Shown here: positions 35,771 through 47,049 of the stretch, one piece after another
How positions within the stretch are numbered: position 1 is the first letter of the stretch
Layout of the letters: every line of letters starts with the position of its first letter
Assembly: GCA_964411325.1 (NCBI GenBank)
Contig: CAYPKM010000001.1
Coordinates: forward strand, 1 to 55,282
Length of the DNA stretch: 55,282 nt
From: an uncultured Christensenella sp.
GTDB taxonomy: Bacteria > Bacillota > Clostridia > Christensenellales > UBA1242
Direction of reading: 5' to 3'
Position numbers and translations under genes: made by a program
Notes under the pieces: model-generated
What the model saw: only the letters and a program-made list of their open reading frames with translations
Told to the model about the DNA's origin: nothing
Database searches by the model: none

Positions 35771-36676
35771 TTAAGGCATTCTTTTTAGGGTTGAGAAATA
35801 TACTTTCTTTAGTCCTTTGACATCCATACTTGTAGCAACTAGCGAATTTGGCTCTCTGTCTGTGTAGAAATCCAACAAAGAATTGTTGACTTTCTTGACA
35901 TAAGTTATTTGAGTATTCATCTTTTCAATTCTGAATATTTTAGGATTGGTAATCATTGCTACTGCGACAGCATCGTGAAGTGCAATGCCTACAGTTACGT
36001 GGGTATCTTTGTAACTTTTGTAGATTTCATATAGCATCTCACCGGTTTTGCCCATTTTTCTAGTCTTCTCAATTTCCTCTTTGGTTAGATACCCATAATG
36101 TCCGTGGTCACTAGGACAAACAACCAATTTAAGACCACTTTGCCAAACCATTTGTGCAGCCTCAGGGTCTTGTTGAATATTAAATCCATAATATCTACTG
36201 CTTTGGTTATCCAAAAGCAATCCACCACTAAATAGCACGTAATCTATTTTTTCTTTTACTTCGGGATATTTGGATATTAGGGTTGCTATATTTGTAAGTG
36301 GCCCTAGTGCTACAATAATAATCTTTTGGTCAGAAGACATCAAAACTTCACGCATCTTTTCTACAGCAGGTGTTTTGATAGGTTTCAATTCACACTTAGG
36401 AAATTTCCAGTCGCCTAGCCCAGATTTGCCGTGTGCTTGAATGGAATTATCCTTTTTCCTAGCAATTGGACTCTCTGCCCCAATAGCCACAGGAATATCT
36501 CTAACGTCTATTGCTTGCAAAAAATTAAGTGTGTTTTTGGTTATTTTGTCAATAGTTACATTGCCACAAACGGTTGTTATTAGTTTGATATCCAAGTTTT
36601 TGGAATAAGTAGCAAGAGCCAAGGCAATAGCGTCATCAATGCCCGGGTCGGCATCTATAATAACTTGTTTTTTCAT
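35771..36676 (-). CDS. Nucleoside hydrolase (inosine/uridine-preferring family)
   Basis: N-terminal 'VIIDADPGIDDAIALALA' (DxDxxxDD). Confidence 0.85.
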   Translation of the reverse strand: MKKQVIIDADPGIDDAIALALATYSKNLDIKLITTVCGNVTIDKITKNTLNFLQAIDVRDIPVAIGAESPIARKKDNSIQAHGKSGLGDWKFPKCELKPIKTPAVEKMREVLMSSDQKIIIVALGPLTNIATLISKYPEVKEKIDYVLFSGGLLLDNQSSRYYGFNIQQDPEAAQMVWQSGLKLVVCPSDHGHYGYLTKEEIEKTRKMGKTGEMLYEIYKSYKDTHVTVGIALHDAVAVAMITNPKIFRIEKMNTQITYVKKVNNSLLDFYTDREPNSLVATSMDVKGLKKVYFSTLKRMP

Positions 36677-39013: not shown

Positions 39014-39155
39014 TAAAATTTGATATTTTGAAGTCTCAAATGTTTAAACTTTGGAAAATAGCCAATTTTTATAATTGACTATTTTTTTCTTATAATTATC
39101 AACCAAAATGAAAGAATATCCATTTTATTTTTTTGATAAAAATTGATTGACGAAA

Positions 39156-39171
39156 TACAACATCTAGTGTT
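39156..39171 (+). promoter_or_regulatory. NrdR box 1, overlapping a TTGACG (39147-39152) / TGtTATATT promoter
   Basis: tACAACATCTAGTGTt fits the palindromic NrdR consensus acaCwAtATaTwGtgt. Confidence 0.6.
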
Positions 39172-39186
39172 ATATTAAAACCATAA

Positions 39187-39252: not shown

Positions 39253-41616
39253 ATGATTACTAAAGTTAGAAAAAGAGATGGTCGTTTGGCTGACTATGAT
39301 ATTGGAAAGATTGAGAATGCAATAGCAAAAGCGATGATTTCTTTGGGTGATGGAGAAATTAAAGATTGTAAGAAGATGGCGAAAATTACCGAACTTAATT
39401 TGATGGAACAATATGAGGATAGAATTCCTAGTGTTGAAGAAATTCAAGACATTGTCGAAAAAGTTTTGATGACTAATGGCTACGAAGATGTGGCTAAGGC
39501 ATATATATTATATAGACGCGATCACGAGAAGGTAAGAAATATCCAAAATACAGTTATGGACTACAAACAAACTGTAGACAAATATTTGAATTTGGCAGAC
39601 TGGAGAGTCAAAGAAAATTCAACTGTTACATATTCTGTAGGTGGACTTATCCTTTCCAATTCGGGTGCAATCACTGCCAATTATTGGTTGAGCGAAGTTT
39701 ATGACAAGGAAATAGAACAAGCACACAAGAATGCAGATATACATATTCACGATTTGAGTATGCTTACTGGATATTGTGCAGGCTGGTCTTTGAAGCAATT
39801 AATAATGGAAGGACTTGGTGGAGTTTCGGGAAAAATTACTTCTAAACCTGCTAGTCACTTGTCTACACTTTGCAATCAAATGGTTAATTTCTTAGGAATA
39901 ATGCAAAATGAGTGGGCTGGTGCGCAAGCATTCTCTTCTTTTGATACCTATCTGGCTCCTTTTGTAAAAGTTGACAACCTATCTTACAAAGAAGTTAAAC
40001 AATGTATTCAAAGTTTCATATATGGTGTTAATACTCCATCTCGTTGGGGGACTCAAGCACCATTTACCAATGTTACACTTGATTGGGTTGTGCCTAATGA
40101 CTTGGCAGAACTTAATGCAATTGTTGGTGGCAAGGAAGTAGATTTCAAATACAAAGATTGCAAAAAAGAAATGGAAATGGTCAACAAAGCATTCATTGAG
40201 ATAATGGTTGAGGGCGATGCTAATGGCAGAGGTTTCCAATATCCTATTCCTACTTATTCTATTACAAGAGACTTCGATTGGTCAGAGACAGAGAATAACA
40301 AACTTTTGTTTGAAATGACAACTAAATATGGTACACCATATTTCTCAAATTACATCAATTCTGATATGGAACCTAGCGATGTTAGAAGTATGTGTTGTAG
40401 ACTTAGACTAGATTTGAGAGAATTAAGAAAGAAATCTGGTGGATACTTTGGCTCGGGCGAAAGCACAGGCAGTGTAGGCGTTGTTACAATCAATATGCCT
40501 AGAATTGCTTATCTTTCCAAAACTGAAGATGAGTTCTTTGATAGACTAGACAAAATGATGGATATTTCTGCTAGGTCTTTGAAAGTTAAGAGAGAGACTA
40601 TTACCAAACTTTTGGAGTATGGACTATATCCTTATACCAAAAGATATTTGGGCTCTTTCAATAATCACTTCTCTACAATTGGCTTGGTTGGAATGAATGA
40701 GGCTTGTCTAAATGCTATTTGGATTGGCGAAGATTTGACTAGCAAAAAGGCACAAGAGTTCACTCAAAAAGTGCTTAACCATATGAGAGATAGACTTAGT
40801 GATTATCAAGAGAAATACGGCGACTTGTACAATTTGGAAGCAACTCCTGCAGAGAGTACTTCGTTTAGACTAGCCAAACACGATAGAGAAAGATATCCAG
40901 ATATTATTACTGCATCTCAAGATGATAATGTTCCATATTACACCAATAGTTCACATTTGCCAGTTGGTTTCACTTCTGACATCTTTGAGGCTTTGGATGT
41001 GCAAGACAACCTTCAAACCCTTTATACATCAGGTACAGTATTCCACGCGTTCTTGGGCGAAAAATTGGAAAATTGGAAAGTTACTATGAATTTGGTTAGA
41101 AAAATTGCTGAGAATTATAGACTTCCATATTATACAATTTCTCCTACATATTCTGTTTGCAAAACTCACGGATATATAGCAGGCGAACACTTTGAATGTC
41201 CAGAGTGTGGTGCTCCTGCCGAAGTTTATAGTAGAATTACTGGATATTATAGACCTGTTCAAAATTGGAATGATGGCAAAACTCAAGAATTCAAAGAAAG
41301 AAAAAATTATGATATAGCAACTAGCAAAATGAAAGAGAAATGCTCGGATGGAGTTTGTTGTTGCGAAGAAAAAGAAAAGGCAGAATTAAAAGACATTACA
41401 TTATTTGCAACCAAGACTTGCCCTAATTGCAAAATGGCAAAAATGCTTTTGGACAAAGCAAAAATCAAATATGTAGTAGTTGATGCCGAAGAAAACAAAG
41501 AATTTACTGAGGCTTGTGGTGTCAAAAAAGCCCCAACACTATTAGTGCCAACCAAAGATGGTCTGCAGGTTTATGATAATGCTAGTGAAATTAGACGCTA
41601 CATCGAGGGAAAATAA
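39253..41616 (+). CDS. nrdD: Anaerobic (class III) ribonucleoside-triphosphate reductase with N-terminal ATP-cone and C-terminal fused glutaredoxin-like domain
   Basis: 'MITKVRKRDGRLADYDIGKIENAI' ATP-cone, 'VVTINMPRIAY', zinc site 'CKTHGY...CPECG', glycyl-radical 'SRITGYYRPVQNWNDGK'. An extra ~75 aa follows: 'ITLFATKTCPNCKMAKMLLDKAKIKYVVVDAEEN...APTLLVP'. Confidence 0.9.
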   Translation: MITKVRKRDGRLADYDIGKIENAIAKAMISLGDGEIKDCKKMAKITELNLMEQYEDRIPSVEEIQDIVEKVLMTNGYEDVAKAYILYRRDHEKVRNIQNTVMDYKQTVDKYLNLADWRVKENSTVTYSVGGLILSNSGAITANYWLSEVYDKEIEQAHKNADIHIHDLSMLTGYCAGWSLKQLIMEGLGGVSGKITSKPASHLSTLCNQMVNFLGIMQNEWAGAQAFSSFDTYLAPFVKVDNLSYKEVKQCIQSFIYGVNTPSRWGTQAPFTNVTLDWVVPNDLAELNAIVGGKEVDFKYKDCKKEMEMVNKAFIEIMVEGDANGRGFQYPIPTYSITRDFDWSETENNKLLFEMTTKYGTPYFSNYINSDMEPSDVRSMCCRLRLDLRELRKKSGGYFGSGESTGSVGVVTINMPRIAYLSKTEDEFFDRLDKMMDISARSLKVKRETITKLLEYGLYPYTKRYLGSFNNHFSTIGLVGMNEACLNAIWIGEDLTSKKAQEFTQKVLNHMRDRLSDYQEKYGDLYNLEATPAESTSFRLAKHDRERYPDIITASQDDNVPYYTNSSHLPVGFTSDIFEALDVQDNLQTLYTSGTVFHAFLGEKLENWKVTMNLVRKIAENYRLPYYTISPTYSVCKTHGYIAGEHFECPECGAPAEVYSRITGYYRPVQNWNDGKTQEFKERKNYDIATSKMKEKCSDGVCCCEEKEKAELKDITLFATKTCPNCKMAKMLLDKAKIKYVVVDAEENKEFTEACGVKKAPTLLVPTKDGLQVYDNASEIRRYIEGK

Positions 41617-42524
41617 TGTTTGATATAATAGTAATTGGTGGAGGTGTGGCAGGAATGACTGCCTGCCTCTATTCACTTAGAAATAACAAAAAGACTTTGC
41701 TAATAGAGGGTAGTAGTATAGGGGGGCAAATTGCACAATCTCCCAAGGTAGAAAATTATCCTACCCACAAACAAATTTCTGGTTTGCAACTCAGTGACCA
41801 ATTGTTTGAGCAGATACAGGCTTTGGGTGTGGAATTTGAATGTGATTACATCCAAAGTATTCAAAAGCAAGATAATGTCTTTACGCTTAAAGGTGAATTT
41901 GGTGAGTATCAAGGATATAGCGTAATAATTGCTAATGGCGTCAAGCATCGCAAATTAAATATTGAAAATGAAGACAAGTTTTTGGGCAAAGGTTTGTATT
42001 ATTGCGCAATATGTGATGGTCCATTCTATGCTGGTCAAGAGGTTACTCTTATTGGCGATGGCAATACGGCTTTGCAATATGCTTTGTATTTGAGTAGTGT
42101 TTGCTCCAAAGTTAATTTGGTTATAATGTTTGATAAGTTCTTTGGCGACGAAAACCTTGTAAAATTAGTAGAGGGCAAGGAAAATATTAATATTATTAGA
42201 AATGCCAAAACTGTAGCATTGGAAGGCGAAGACTCGCTAAACAAAATAGTTTTTGAGGATGTCAGTGGCAAGACTTTTGCGATAGAAAACACTCCGTTGT
42301 TTGTGGCAATTGGTCAAGTGGCAGACAACCAAAGGTTTGCCAATTTGGCAGACCTAGACTCGCAAGGATATTTCCTAGCAGACGAGACAACTCAGACCAA
42401 GACAGCAGGCTTGTTTGTCGCGGGGGATACTCGTAGTAAGGGTGTTAGACAGGTAACTACTGCTATGTGTGATGGTGCTGTTTCTGCAACATCTGCTTGC
42501 AATTATTTGCATACAATTAAATAA
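41616..42524 (+). CDS. Thioredoxin-reductase-fold flavoprotein lacking the NADPH HRRxxxR motif
   Basis: 'FDIIVIGGGVAGMTAC', redox 'CAICDG', 'GLFVAGD'. Where E. coli TrxB has 'VHLIHRRDGFRAE', this protein reads 'VNLVIMFDKFFGD'. The ATG overlaps the nrdD TAA. Confidence 0.75.
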   Translation: MFDIIVIGGGVAGMTACLYSLRNNKKTLLIEGSSIGGQIAQSPKVENYPTHKQISGLQLSDQLFEQIQALGVEFECDYIQSIQKQDNVFTLKGEFGEYQGYSVIIANGVKHRKLNIENEDKFLGKGLYYCAICDGPFYAGQEVTLIGDGNTALQYALYLSSVCSKVNLVIMFDKFFGDENLVKLVEGKENINIIRNAKTVALEGEDSLNKIVFEDVSGKTFAIENTPLFVAIGQVADNQRFANLADLDSQGYFLADETTQTKTAGLFVAGDTRSKGVRQVTTAMCDGAVSATSACNYLHTIK

Positions 42525-42526
42525 AA

Positions 42527-42607
42527 AAGAATTAAGAAGCGCTTTGAAGTGAATTTTTTAAAAGGTTTTTAACTTTTTGAAATCACTTCATTTTTTTTCT
42601 TAATTCC
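42527..42607. terminator. Long imperfect hairpin between convergent genes
   Basis: Outer arms gaattaagaa / ttcttaattc, inner arms tgaagtga / tcacttca, T8 run at ~42592-42599. Confidence 0.5.
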
Positions 42608-42612
42608 ATTTT

Positions 42613-43296
42613 TTAATATCCTCTAAGTTTGGTGTTGGGGATAGAGTCTCTTAAGTATCCCAAAAACATATTTGCATCATCTTTGGGTACTTCTGTCAAA
42701 TTGCTCTCCATACAATTGCCACTGTCTTCGAATTTTTGCAAGTAATATCTCTTGGCATTTCTTATCATTTTGGAGATTTTTTTGATGTCGTCAAAAGTAT
42801 GCAATTGGCTAACAAGTGTGGTTCTAAATTCGTAATCAATACCACAATTCATTATATATTGTATAGATTGCTGGATGATGTCTATGTCATAATTTTTGCC
42901 TATGGTTTTTGAATAGTTATCATAACAATTTTTGATATCCATTGCTATATAGTCTATTAGTTTGTTCTCCACTAGATATTTTATCATATCGGGATTGGTG
43001 CCGTTGGTATCCAATTTTATCTCATAACCCATTTGCTTGACTTTGACTATAAACTGTGGCAAGTCGGCGTACAGTGTTGGCTCACCTCCACTAATACAAA
43101 CACTATCCAAAAGTCCAAATCGGTGGCGTAGATATTCAAGTATTTCCTCTTGGTCAAGTTCGGGTTCGCTTCCTTTGACTAGTCCAGCATTGTGGCAGAA
43201 AGGACAAGCGAAATTGCAACCACTCACAAAAATTGTGGCACTTATGTGTCCGTCAAAGTCAACTAGGGATAATTTTTGAAATCCAGATATTTTCAT
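42613..43296 (-). CDS. nrdG: Anaerobic RNR activating enzyme (radical SAM)
   Basis: 'FQKLSLVDFDGHISATIFVSGCNFACPFCHN', 'GVCISGGEPTL'-type region. Confidence 0.9.
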   Translation of the reverse strand: MKISGFQKLSLVDFDGHISATIFVSGCNFACPFCHNAGLVKGSEPELDQEEILEYLRHRFGLLDSVCISGGEPTLYADLPQFIVKVKQMGYEIKLDTNGTNPDMIKYLVENKLIDYIAMDIKNCYDNYSKTIGKNYDIDIIQQSIQYIMNCGIDYEFRTTLVSQLHTFDDIKKISKMIRNAKRYYLQKFEDSGNCMESNLTEVPKDDANMFLGYLRDSIPNTKLRGY

Positions 43297-46236: not shown

Positions 46237-46374
46237 TTTTTGATAAGTTTGAATATAAATGTCAAAATTAAAGTTGATATAATATTCAAACTTTTTTTGA
46301 TGTGCAAATAGAGGTATTTATTTTGCAAATATCCTTGAGTGTGTTAAAATAGAGGAAGTATGAGGAGTAAGAAA

Positions 46375-47049
46375 ATGGGATATATAGTAGTAATTGAAGG
46401 CACAGATGGCTGTGGCAAACAAACACAAGCAGAGAAATTGAGGGATAGACTAGTGAGTGAGGGGTATAATGTAAGGAAAGTTAGTTTTCCCAATTACTCT
46501 AGCCCTAGCGCGTCACCTGTCAAAATGTATCTAGGTGGAGAGTTTGGTGATAGCGACCAATCGCTTGACGCTTATCAAGCAAGTGTGCTATTTTCGGTAG
46601 ATAGACTGTGTACTTATCAAAAGGACTTGAAAGAATTCTACGAAAACGGTGGCATTATAATATTCGATAGATATGTTGAGTCCAATATGCTCCATCAGGC
46701 TGGCAAATTGGCAAGGATAGATGAGATTAACGACTATTGCGATTGGCTTGATACGCTAGAATTCGACACTTTGAAATTGCCTAGACCCAATAGGGTAATA
46801 TTTCTAGATGTGCCAGTAGATGTCTCAATTAGACTTGCTCACGAGAGGGGGGAATTAAAGGCACAAACCAAACAAGACGTTCACGAAAACAATCCCAATC
46901 ACTTGCTTCACGCATATGAGTGTGGCAAATATATGATAGATAAGTATGGCTGGGATAGAGTAGATTGTGTAGAGGGCACAAGTTTGCGAAGTAGAGAAGA
47001 TATAGCCGAAGAAGTGTACGGGCTTATCATAGGAGATTTGAAAAAATAA
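46375..47049 (+). CDS. tmk: Thymidylate kinase
   Basis: The ATG at 46375 follows AGGAG. 'IVVIEGTDGCGKQTQ' P-loop, 'FDRY', LID-region Arg residues. Confidence 0.8.
   Translation: MGYIVVIEGTDGCGKQTQAEKLRDRLVSEGYNVRKVSFPNYSSPSASPVKMYLGGEFGDSDQSLDAYQASVLFSVDRLCTYQKDLKEFYENGGIIIFDRYVESNMLHQAGKLARIDEINDYCDWLDTLEFDTLKLPRPNRVIFLDVPVDVSIRLAHERGELKAQTKQDVHENNPNHLLHAYECGKYMIDKYGWDRVDCVEGTSLRSREDIAEEVYGLIIGDLKK

Follow-up and report, generated by a model that had tools for sequence, protein, structure and literature searches.

The stretch analysed here, hereafter the window, is a 55,282-nt contig stretch from an uncultured Christensenella sp., and all coordinates are given in window numbering. Its open reading frames (ORFs) include a module of three genes: nrdD-grx, encoding a class III ribonucleotide reductase (RNR) with a C-terminal glutaredoxin (Grx)-fold domain; a gene for a thioredoxin reductase (TrxR)-like flavoprotein; and nrdG. 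The module and the promoter-like site in front of it are as follows:

39147..39176, + strand: promoter-like site upstream of nrdD (TTGACG, 18-nt spacer, TGtTATATT; 10/12 consensus matches, with a TG extension)
39253..41616, + strand: nrdD-grx, class III ribonucleoside-triphosphate reductase with C-terminal glutaredoxin-fold domain, 787 aa (ORF, Pfam, NCBIfam)
41616..42524, + strand: gene for the low-Mr thioredoxin reductase-like flavoprotein, 302 aa, its start overlapping the nrdD stop (TAATG)
42613..43296, - strand: nrdG, radical-SAM activase of NrdD, 227 codons (TIGR02495, 215 bits against a cutoff of 131)

The DNA at the junction of the first two genes reads GAGGGAAAATAATGTTT. The final A of the nrdD stop codon TAA (41614-41616) doubles as the first base of the TrxR-like ATG, and a GAGGG Shine-Dalgarno sequence for the TrxR-like gene lies within the 3' end of nrdD. 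At the level of sequence there is support for regarding the TrxR-like gene as a partner dedicated to nrdD-grx and coupled to it in translation. The third gene encodes an NrdG2-type activase and is convergent with the nrdD-TrxR-like pair. An earlier annotation made from the letters alone (the sequence-only reading) had described both the TAATG overlap and the convergent nrdG, and both descriptions were accurate.

The NrdD core, its linker and the tethered domain

Membership of NrdD in class III was evident from the score of its core, the RxxGY motif, a Cys-rich zinc site and the adjacent radical-SAM activase. Pfam placed an ATP-cone at residues 4-92, NRDD at residues 121-686 (PF13597, 645 bits) and Glutaredoxin at residues 715-754; among the NCBIfam models, NF006126 'ribonucleoside triphosphate reductase' scored 1139.9 bits (cutoff 548) and TIGR02487 scored 533 (cutoff 326). 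The protein was aligned with E. coli NrdD and with its orthologues, and the matching Glu of Thermotoga maritima was taken from a phmmer alignment, with its number from PMC9669993. The features located within nrdD-grx are:

39262..39528, + strand: ATP-cone, residues 4-92 (PF03477, 86 bits)
39775..39777, + strand: Cys175 in GYCAGW, the beta-A (bottom-face) cysteine, which aligns with E. coli C175 and is invariant in 48 orthologues
40390..40401, + strand: finger loop M380-C381-C382-R383, of the double-cysteine MCCR type (alignment; motif classes from PMC9669993)
40837..40839, + strand: Glu529 in NLEATPAE, which aligns with T. maritima Glu495; E. coli NrdD has Tyr542 there
41233..41247, + strand: glycyl-radical motif RITGY, residues 661-665, with Gly664 (sequence, alignment)
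41311..41394, + strand: flexible linker, residues 687-714, with the Cys cluster CSDGVCCC; length and Cys content vary among orthologues
41395..41613, + strand: glutaredoxin/NrdH-like thioredoxin-fold domain, residues 715-787 (Pfam, alignment, predicted fold)
41419-41430, + strand: CPNC of the Grx domain, residues 723-726, with invariant C723, P724 and C726 (alignment)

The glycyl-radical motif stands within RITGYYRPV (residues 661-669). The finger loop, embedded in RSMCCRL, reads M380-C381-C382-R383 where E. coli has M382-G383-C384-R385 and T. maritima has SCCR at 328-331. In 48 full-length orthologues the residues C175, M380, C381, C382, R383, E529, G664, C723, P724, C726 and P761 were invariant, as were the zinc-site cysteines C636, C649 and C652.

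These residues bear on the subclass of the enzyme and hence on its reductant. NrdD1 enzymes have a single-Cys MGCR loop and no active-site Glu; the window protein has MCCR and E529, and Met380 is kept. It also departs from NrdD3, which has a QCCR/A loop without the Met and the Glu, in that both Met380 and Glu529 are present. The third active-site Cys, supplied by the double-Cys loop, and Glu529 agree with NrdD2, a group defined by a third Cys and a Glu, some members of which also have a Met (PMC4493059); MCCR is found in 83% of double-Cys class III enzymes (PMC9669993). As aligned, NrdD carries the full residue set of the thiol-dependent class III enzymes plus Met380, that is, the NrdD2 signature with the Met retained, which is the commonest double-Cys type. 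The sequence-only reading had entered a caveat over the Met in RSMCCRL. Scoring the Met against the Cys pair and the Glu by alignment settled the point, with Met380, C381-C382 and Glu529 all present in what is the majority double-Cys type. Judged by these residues, Met380 would be no argument against a thiol pathway, and formate may still be used.

The Grx domain hangs on a disordered linker of 28 residues, which reads CSDGVCCCEE in the window. The Cys-rich linker that had been noted earlier is therefore present, but its Cys content is not conserved: linkers among the orthologues run from 23 to 55 aa, hold 0-4 Cys and are acidic or basic. A CxC or CC dyad (CAC, CEC, CDC and similar) is usual, and 6 of 68 sequences have no Cys in the linker. 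By analogy, the dyad could be a shuttle dithiol like those in the C-terminal tails of class I and II RNRs. As an obligatory shuttle, however, the linker cysteines were rejected because of the 6 sequences from which the dyad is missing.

The tethered domain scored 35.9 bits against PF00462 (gathering cutoff 22.9) and has both the CPNC and the cis-Pro, which is the proline of APTL at residue 761. AlphaFold2, supplied with the 48-sequence alignment, modelled residues 716-787 as a confident thioredoxin fold (pLDDT 89-94; beta-alpha-beta-alpha-beta-beta-alpha). In the same model linker residues 697-709 fell below a pLDDT of 50, and the finger loop was of low confidence, as reported for other double-Cys enzymes. 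The domain is basic, with a pI of 8.8. It fits no NCBIfam Grx, NrdH, YruB or mycoredoxin subfamily (best 19-24 bits against cutoffs of 66-90), and inspection by eye revealed no GG..DD or WSGFRP-type motif at its conserved positions. The fused thioredoxin-fold domain of about 75 aa with CPNC, as originally described, is thus borne out by the Pfam assignment, the position of the motif and the predicted fold.

A search of protein clusters with residues 686-787 as the query, and with the whole protein determining the admissible lengths, gave 2,011 clusters. Of these, 120 were listed, and every one had both NRDD and Glutaredoxin, the full-length ones with the ATP-cone as well; they came from Clostridia, Christensenellales and Clostridiales metagenome-assembled genomes (MAGs), and their NCBI name was only 'ribonucleoside triphosphate reductase'. 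The fusion was present in about 49 genomes of an even set of 250 from Clostridia, all of them 90% complete or better; the matches share 65-81% identity and extend as far as query residue ~785. An unfused but related NrdD, whose matches stop close to residue 690 at 48-55% identity, occurs in about 45 genomes of the set, and in about 20 there is a distant NrdD only. A scan of species-representative genomes, for which an alignment of four TrxR-like orthologues served as the query, found 389 relatives, and 80 of the loci were fetched. A fused NrdD-Grx ORF lies directly upstream of the TrxR-like gene in 67 of the 80, which are independent assemblies; in the other 13, the NrdD gene was absent from ample upstream sequence or a contig end prevented assessment. 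The 67 fused loci all have CPNC, save for one CPRC and one CSNC, and the loop RSMCCRL wherever that region is present. The suspicion that the fusion is an assembly or frameshift artefact joining two genes can be laid aside as practically impossible, since it recurs as a single ORF in all 67 NrdD-holding loci, in ~2,000 clusters and in ~49 of the 250 class genomes.

The flavoprotein and its NrdD-linked lineage

The product of the second gene contains Pyr_redox_2 (Pfam) and scored 278 bits against TIGR01292, below the equivalog cutoff of 343.45. Three sites distinguish it:

42003..42014, + strand: redox-active CAIC, residues 130-133, which aligns with E. coli CATC
42054..42071, + strand: GDGNTA, residues 147-152, the altered second dinucleotide-binding motif (GGGNTA in E. 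coli; GDANTA in many orthologues)
42123..42149, + strand: IMFDKFFGD, residues 170-178, at the position of HRRxxxR (HRRDGFRAE in E. coli)

The FAD motif, GGGVAG, is present, so that this part of the earlier description proved correct together with the CAIC. A BLASTP comparison with E. coli K-12 TrxB, taken from the annotated genome, pairs I170-M-F-D-K-F-F176 with H175-R-R-D-G-F-R181; both the loss of the NADPH-binding HRRxxxR motif and the E. coli string quoted in the sequence-only reading were confirmed by it. An intact NADPH site in another register, which would speak against this loss, was looked for, and no HRRxxxR-like site was found elsewhere in the protein. The glycine motif formally matches GxGxxA, yet holds an invariant Asp. 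Orthologues with as little as 54% identity all keep F172, D173, K174, F175, F176, G177 and D178, and in the wider type A clade described below T[LM]FDKFF[GA]D is near-invariant with occasional substitutions. Conservation of the replacement motif points to a constrained new site rather than to decay.

The predicted structure is that of an intact two-domain TrxR (pLDDT 91.9), with its C-terminus at residue 302 after the last helix (280-301). Its best fold matches are NADPH-dependent thioredoxin reductases (NTRs), at TM 0.91-0.93 and in the flavin-oxidising conformation; the top 50 include no flavin thioredoxin reductase of the ferredoxin-dependent kind (FFTR). The protein scored 106 bits against the Gloeobacter FFTR/DTR and 50-57 bits against DDORs. 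The C-terminal tail of DTR and DDOR, with an aromatic residue that stacks on the FAD (PMC8154056), was not found in it. All NrdD-linked TrxRs are acidic (pI 4.6-5.0); an acidic TrxR-like protein and a basic Grx domain suit a TrxR-Grx pairing. As a hint of ferredoxin docking, pI and net charge were set aside as uninformative or mildly negative, because the acidity is common to all of these TrxRs.

From an alignment of all fetched TrxR homologues, four groups were distinguished by the glycine motif, the residues at the HRRxxxR position and the CxxC region:

Type A (the window's), next to NrdD-Grx: GD[GA]N[ST]ALQYA; T[LM]FDKFF[GA]D; CA[IVL]CD
Type B, next to NrdD-Grx: GGGNSALQEA; Q[ND]L[DP]xxTGE; mostly CAVCD
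HRR-retaining, next to NrdD-Grx: GGGxxA-type, variable; HRRxxFRGE-type; mostly CA[VI]CD
Housekeeping TrxB, not next to nrdD: GGGNTALEDA; HRRDxFRGE; CATCD

In a maximum-likelihood tree all NrdD-linked TrxRs formed one clade (100/99), within which type A made up a subclade (100/99) and a sister subclade (97/90) united the HRR-retaining members with type B (100/98). A second tree, extended with sequences picked through NrdD, kept the NrdD-linked clade (SH-aLRT 99) and showed types A (99) and B (97) as separate derived clades, with seven HRR-type members as an unresolved basal grade and one of them (L082) inside the clade that contains type B. Comparison with FFTR, DTR and DDOR sequences was made outside the trees, by bit scores and fold ranks. 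Since the HRR-retaining members are basal and types A and B are separate derived clades, HRRxxxR is ancestral in the NrdD-linked TrxR lineage and was lost at least twice, in types A and B separately. The clade was met only beside NrdD-Grx genes and constitutes a private lineage. A chain from TrxR to Grx domain to NrdD predicts a single NrdD-linked TrxR clade, and the one clade recovered, with its basal members of NADPH type, lends this chain comparative support.

Because loci found through the TrxR could overstate the linkage, we also picked a sample by NrdD and inspected the region downstream of 40 fused nrdD genes. A TrxR-like gene follows immediately and on the same strand in 23 of the 40 (type A in 3 cases, type B in 14, HRR-retaining in 6). 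The order nrdD-grx, TrxR-like gene and opposite-strand downstream nrdG recurs on three contigs with different flanking genes, and about half of the type A loci have a TrxR-like start that overlaps the nrdD stop or is no more than 5 nt away from it. Clustering of all ORFs from the 67 NrdD-bearing loci, shadow ORFs aside, yielded no conserved neighbour besides nrdG. In most type A loci nrdG lies downstream on the opposite strand (exceptions, L035 and L037), and in most type B loci (for example L051, L053, L056, L064 and L073) it lies upstream of nrdD on the same strand; this difference indicates that the module was rearranged between the subclades. The modules of a Coriobacteriaceae MAG (L053, assigned to Actinomycetota) and a Bacteroidaceae MAG (L054, assigned to Bacteroidota) nest among Firmicutes sequences in the tree, which would reflect either horizontal transfer or mis-binned contigs.

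Electron donor, turnover reductant and formate

The assembly to which the window belongs, 80% complete, comprises 73 contigs totalling 0.97 Mb; within it, a pyruvate formate-lyase (PFL)-like glycyl-radical enzyme, a class I or II RNR large subunit and a flavodoxin were not detected. It does hold a single-chain pyruvate:ferredoxin oxidoreductase (PFOR), a 54-aa 2x[4Fe-4S] ferredoxin, one thioredoxin (WCMPC) and a formate-tetrahydrofolate ligase. Two relatives of the same family, G102 and G155, have genomes of 0.8-0.9 Mb that are 100% complete, and each has two TrxR homologues, both without HRRxxxR: the NrdD-linked type A protein and another with CATC, GSGDSA and [CS]KYP[YK]LKLK at the HRRxxxR position (L096, L097). 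The family of the window seems to lack any canonical NADPH-thioredoxin reductase, which fits a thiol metabolism driven by another donor.

We put at about even the chance that the locus equips the only RNR detected in the cell with a self-contained thiol relay, moved off NADPH. In such a relay the active-site disulfide (Cys175-Cys381/382) would be reduced after each turnover by the tethered CPNC dithiol, a step that the linker CxC/CC pair, where present, may assist. The CAIC dithiol of the TrxR-like flavoprotein would in turn restore the oxidised Grx domain to its reduced form, and the FAD of the flavoprotein would be reduced by a donor other than NADPH, putatively the reduced 2x[4Fe-4S] ferredoxin generated by PFOR. 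NADPH is disfavoured because HRRxxxR was ancestral and its H-R-R and fourth Arg were then replaced by a conserved T/I-L/M-F and a Phe, and because GGGNxA was altered to GD(G/A)NxA. Ferredoxin is favoured because the Asp in the glycine motif and the frequent Gly-to-Ala replacement argue against any dinucleotide, because three Phe stand at former arginine positions, and because PFOR and ferredoxin are present and the complete relatives have no canonical NTR. Reduced ferredoxin from PFOR would be the most likely donor, at somewhat less than an even chance, and would make the TrxR-like protein functionally FFTR-like but independently evolved. More tentative still, and possible rather than probable, is the proposal that it represents a third, independently evolved, ferredoxin-driven and pyridine-nucleotide-independent flavin disulfide reductase with one client, the tethered Grx domain. 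As for the electron path drawn in the sequence-only reading, the fusion, the dedicated coupled TrxR and the relay itself gained comparative support, whereas ferredoxin emerged as only one of the donor options.

Several observations weigh against a ferredoxin-fed thiol relay. The flavoprotein scored 188 bits against NTRs (4zn0, 5mh4) and 100-112 bits against clostridial FFTRs (6gna, 6gnc, 6gnd), and the window protein itself keeps G-x-G-x-x-A in GDGNTA. The TrxR-like protein (pI ~5) and the ferredoxin (pI 4.4) are both acidic overall, and clustering of the ORFs of the 67 loci showed no gene for ferredoxin, flavodoxin, rubredoxin or another donor in linkage with the module. The reductase is not obligatory, as 17 of the 40 fused genes have no TrxR-like gene within ~1.5 kb downstream. 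The invariance of Met380 means that formate chemistry may still operate, and PFL (TIGR01255) occurs at the same frequency in genomes with the fusion (31 of 49) as overall (156 of 250). Lastly, HRRxxxR has been lost in ferredoxin-dependent enzymes (PMC6262447; PMC8154056) and also in the NADH-dependent TrxR of Thermoplasma acidophilum and the F420-dependent TrxR of Methanocaldococcus jannaschii (PMC6262447), so loss of the motif alone names no donor.

The same relay could be fed by NADH, the arginine loss having switched the TrxR-like protein from NADPH to NADH; the T. acidophilum enzyme, which uses NADH without HRRxxxR (PMC6262447), offers a precedent. The retained G-x-G-x-x-A and a second Rossmann domain that is intact and NTR-like would suit a dinucleotide, and in the sister type B GGGNSA is kept and beta-2 is often followed at once by an Asp or Asn (Q[ND]L), as it is in NADH binders. 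In Clostridium pasteurianum an NADH-dependent TrxR-like protein, Cp34, works with the Grx-like Cp9. Type A, however, has no acidic residue at the end of beta-2 (I/T, M/L and F occupy the site), and three conserved Phe have replaced the Arg cluster. Its glycine motif contains the invariant Asp, and in the many orthologues with GDANTA the change of the central Gly to Ala would hinder pyrophosphate binding. NADH has to be taken seriously as a donor, above all in the type B sister clade; for the window protein it seems rather unlikely.

Continued use of NADPH through a non-canonical site, or decay of the protein into a non-functional paralogue, appears very improbable. The overall fold is intact, and JGI pipelines name the relatives 'thioredoxin reductase (NADPH)' (NCBI has 'FAD-dependent oxidoreductase'). 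All four basic residues of HRRxxxR have, however, become hydrophobic, and the score against the NCBIfam TrxR equivalog is below its cutoff (278 against 343); decay is excluded, as hundreds of species conserve the FAD motifs and the CxxC along with the replacement motif.

A further explanation leaves the turnover of NrdD to formate, acting with Met380 and Cys175, and assigns the Grx domain and the TrxR-like protein to maintenance, in which zinc-site or active-site cysteines would be kept reduced for radical installation by NrdG or repaired after oxygen exposure. It draws on the invariant Met380, on PFL being equally common with and without the fusion, on the formate-tetrahydrofolate ligase of the genome itself, by which formate is a metabolite there, and on the attachment of the Grx domain beside the glycyl-radical and zinc region. 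Thioredoxin reportedly activates E. coli NrdD through reduction of C-terminal cysteines, a finding attributed to Padovani et al. in 2001. Maintenance alone is nevertheless doubtful, in our estimate no likelier than NADH, given that the residues on which thiol-based turnover depends, the third Cys and Glu529, do not vary, that PFL was not found in the window's own genome or in the 100%-complete G102 and G155, and that a dedicated, translationally coupled reductase suggests stoichiometric flux and not occasional repair.

The notion that the fusion goes with the absence of PFL was rejected on the frequencies given above, and the argument was dropped save for the window's own family. The fusion is no general substitute for lost formate production, and the PFL distribution does not indicate formate independence. 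In that family, the complete genomes G044 and G129 have PFL and no NrdD match at E<=1e-30, and G102 and G155 show the reverse.

The genome of the window encodes two further TrxR homologues, likewise non-canonical. One (contig C7:28064-29008; L005:1489-2433) keeps GGGNTA and HRRNEFRA, has YSTLQD at the CxxC position and comes directly after the formate-tetrahydrofolate ligase gene; it is presumably an NADPH-binding TrxR fold without the disulfide. The other (contig C65; L007:1480-2256), cut by the contig end, has CAIC and a 20-residue insertion, GxGxxA being replaced by FTNNFSAGSA and HRRxxxR by VLDISSGY. It was considered as a proxy for an FFTR and rejected, its best PDB matches being NTRs and not FFTRs.

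Relation to known systems

One close parallel on the NrdD side is NrdD2 with thioredoxin, TrxR and NADPH (Neisseria bacilliformis; T. maritima, 4coi and 4u3e), with which the window enzyme shares the double-Cys loop, the beta-A Cys and the Glu, and in both reduction presumably runs through the active-site disulfide. The window enzyme differs in having MCCR and not SCCR, a fused redoxin and a dedicated reductase without the NADPH motif, and it shares little sequence identity with T. maritima NrdD (138 bits). A class III RNR served by a Grx/NrdH-like protein also occurs in the NrdD3 system of Methanosarcina barkeri, which is cited as ferredoxin-linked and not NADPH-linked (PMC9176816, PMC6262447). 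The reductase there is an Fe-S enzyme of the FTR type (ferredoxin:disulfide reductase) with a separate redoxin, whereas the window has a flavoprotein and a fused redoxin; the M. barkeri loop is QCCR without the Met and the Glu, both of which the window NrdD has.

A Grx domain fused to an RNR subunit is a working reductant in the class I enzyme of Facklamia ignava, in which it is joined to NrdB (PMC6187632). Both that protein and the window NrdD bear a Grx-fold domain on an RNR subunit, but the F. ignava fusion is N-terminal, on the radical subunit and dependent on glutathione, while that of the class III enzyme is C-terminal, on the catalytic subunit and accompanied by its own TrxR-like partner.

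Like the clostridial FFTRs, the flavoprotein is a low-Mr TrxR homologue with CxxC and FAD, without HRRxxxR and without a C-terminal tail, and 2x[4Fe-4S] ferredoxin is present in FFTR hosts and in the window genome alike. The partner of FFTR is a free thioredoxin and that of the window protein a fused Grx domain. Since the window protein nests in the NrdD-linked clade with NADPH-type basal members, ferredoxin dependence would have originated independently. The TrxRs of T. acidophilum (3cty; NADH) and M. jannaschii (F420) resemble it in lacking HRRxxxR and use non-NADPH donors (PMC6262447), but they are general thioredoxin reductases of another lineage with different replacement residues.

Each component is of a known kind: an NrdD2 that depends on thiols, RNR subunits with a fused Grx, and TrxR homologues that work without NADPH. 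The literature searched contained no study of NrdD-Grx together with a dedicated TrxR; the only mention was a one-line listing of a single, unstudied grx::nrdD fusion, from Lachnospiraceae bacterium TWA4 in RefSeq 2018 (PMC6187632). New with respect to that literature are the combination, its abundance in gut Clostridia and some Bacilli, and the finding that a client-specific TrxR lineage lost its NADPH site repeatedly.

The MCCR loop is that of most class III RNRs, and the module constitutes a natural experiment for the question of their reductant. With a fused redoxin in about one fifth of the sampled Clostridia genomes, often beside a private reductase, a thiol pathway can be tested with three genes. 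The private lineage, in which the NADPH site was lost at least twice, also offers a system for studying change of donor in low-Mr TrxRs, and the finding corrects both database names cited above. It bears on the way in which uncultured Firmicutes that abound in the gut, with genomes near 1 Mb, make DNA precursors. If ferredoxin is the donor, deoxyribonucleotide synthesis in these reduced-genome gut Clostridia would draw directly on the low-potential electrons released by pyruvate oxidation and use neither formate nor NAD(P)H, and the NADPH site having been lost in parallel in the QNL-type sister clade would amount to a repeated adaptive shift.

The surroundings of the module in the window concern nucleotide metabolism: an inosine-uridine nucleoside hydrolase gene (35771-36676, - strand) lies upstream and a thymidylate kinase gene (46360-47049, + strand) downstream. 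Both neighbours recur in the closest relatives (L001, L002) and not in the more distant L003 and L004.

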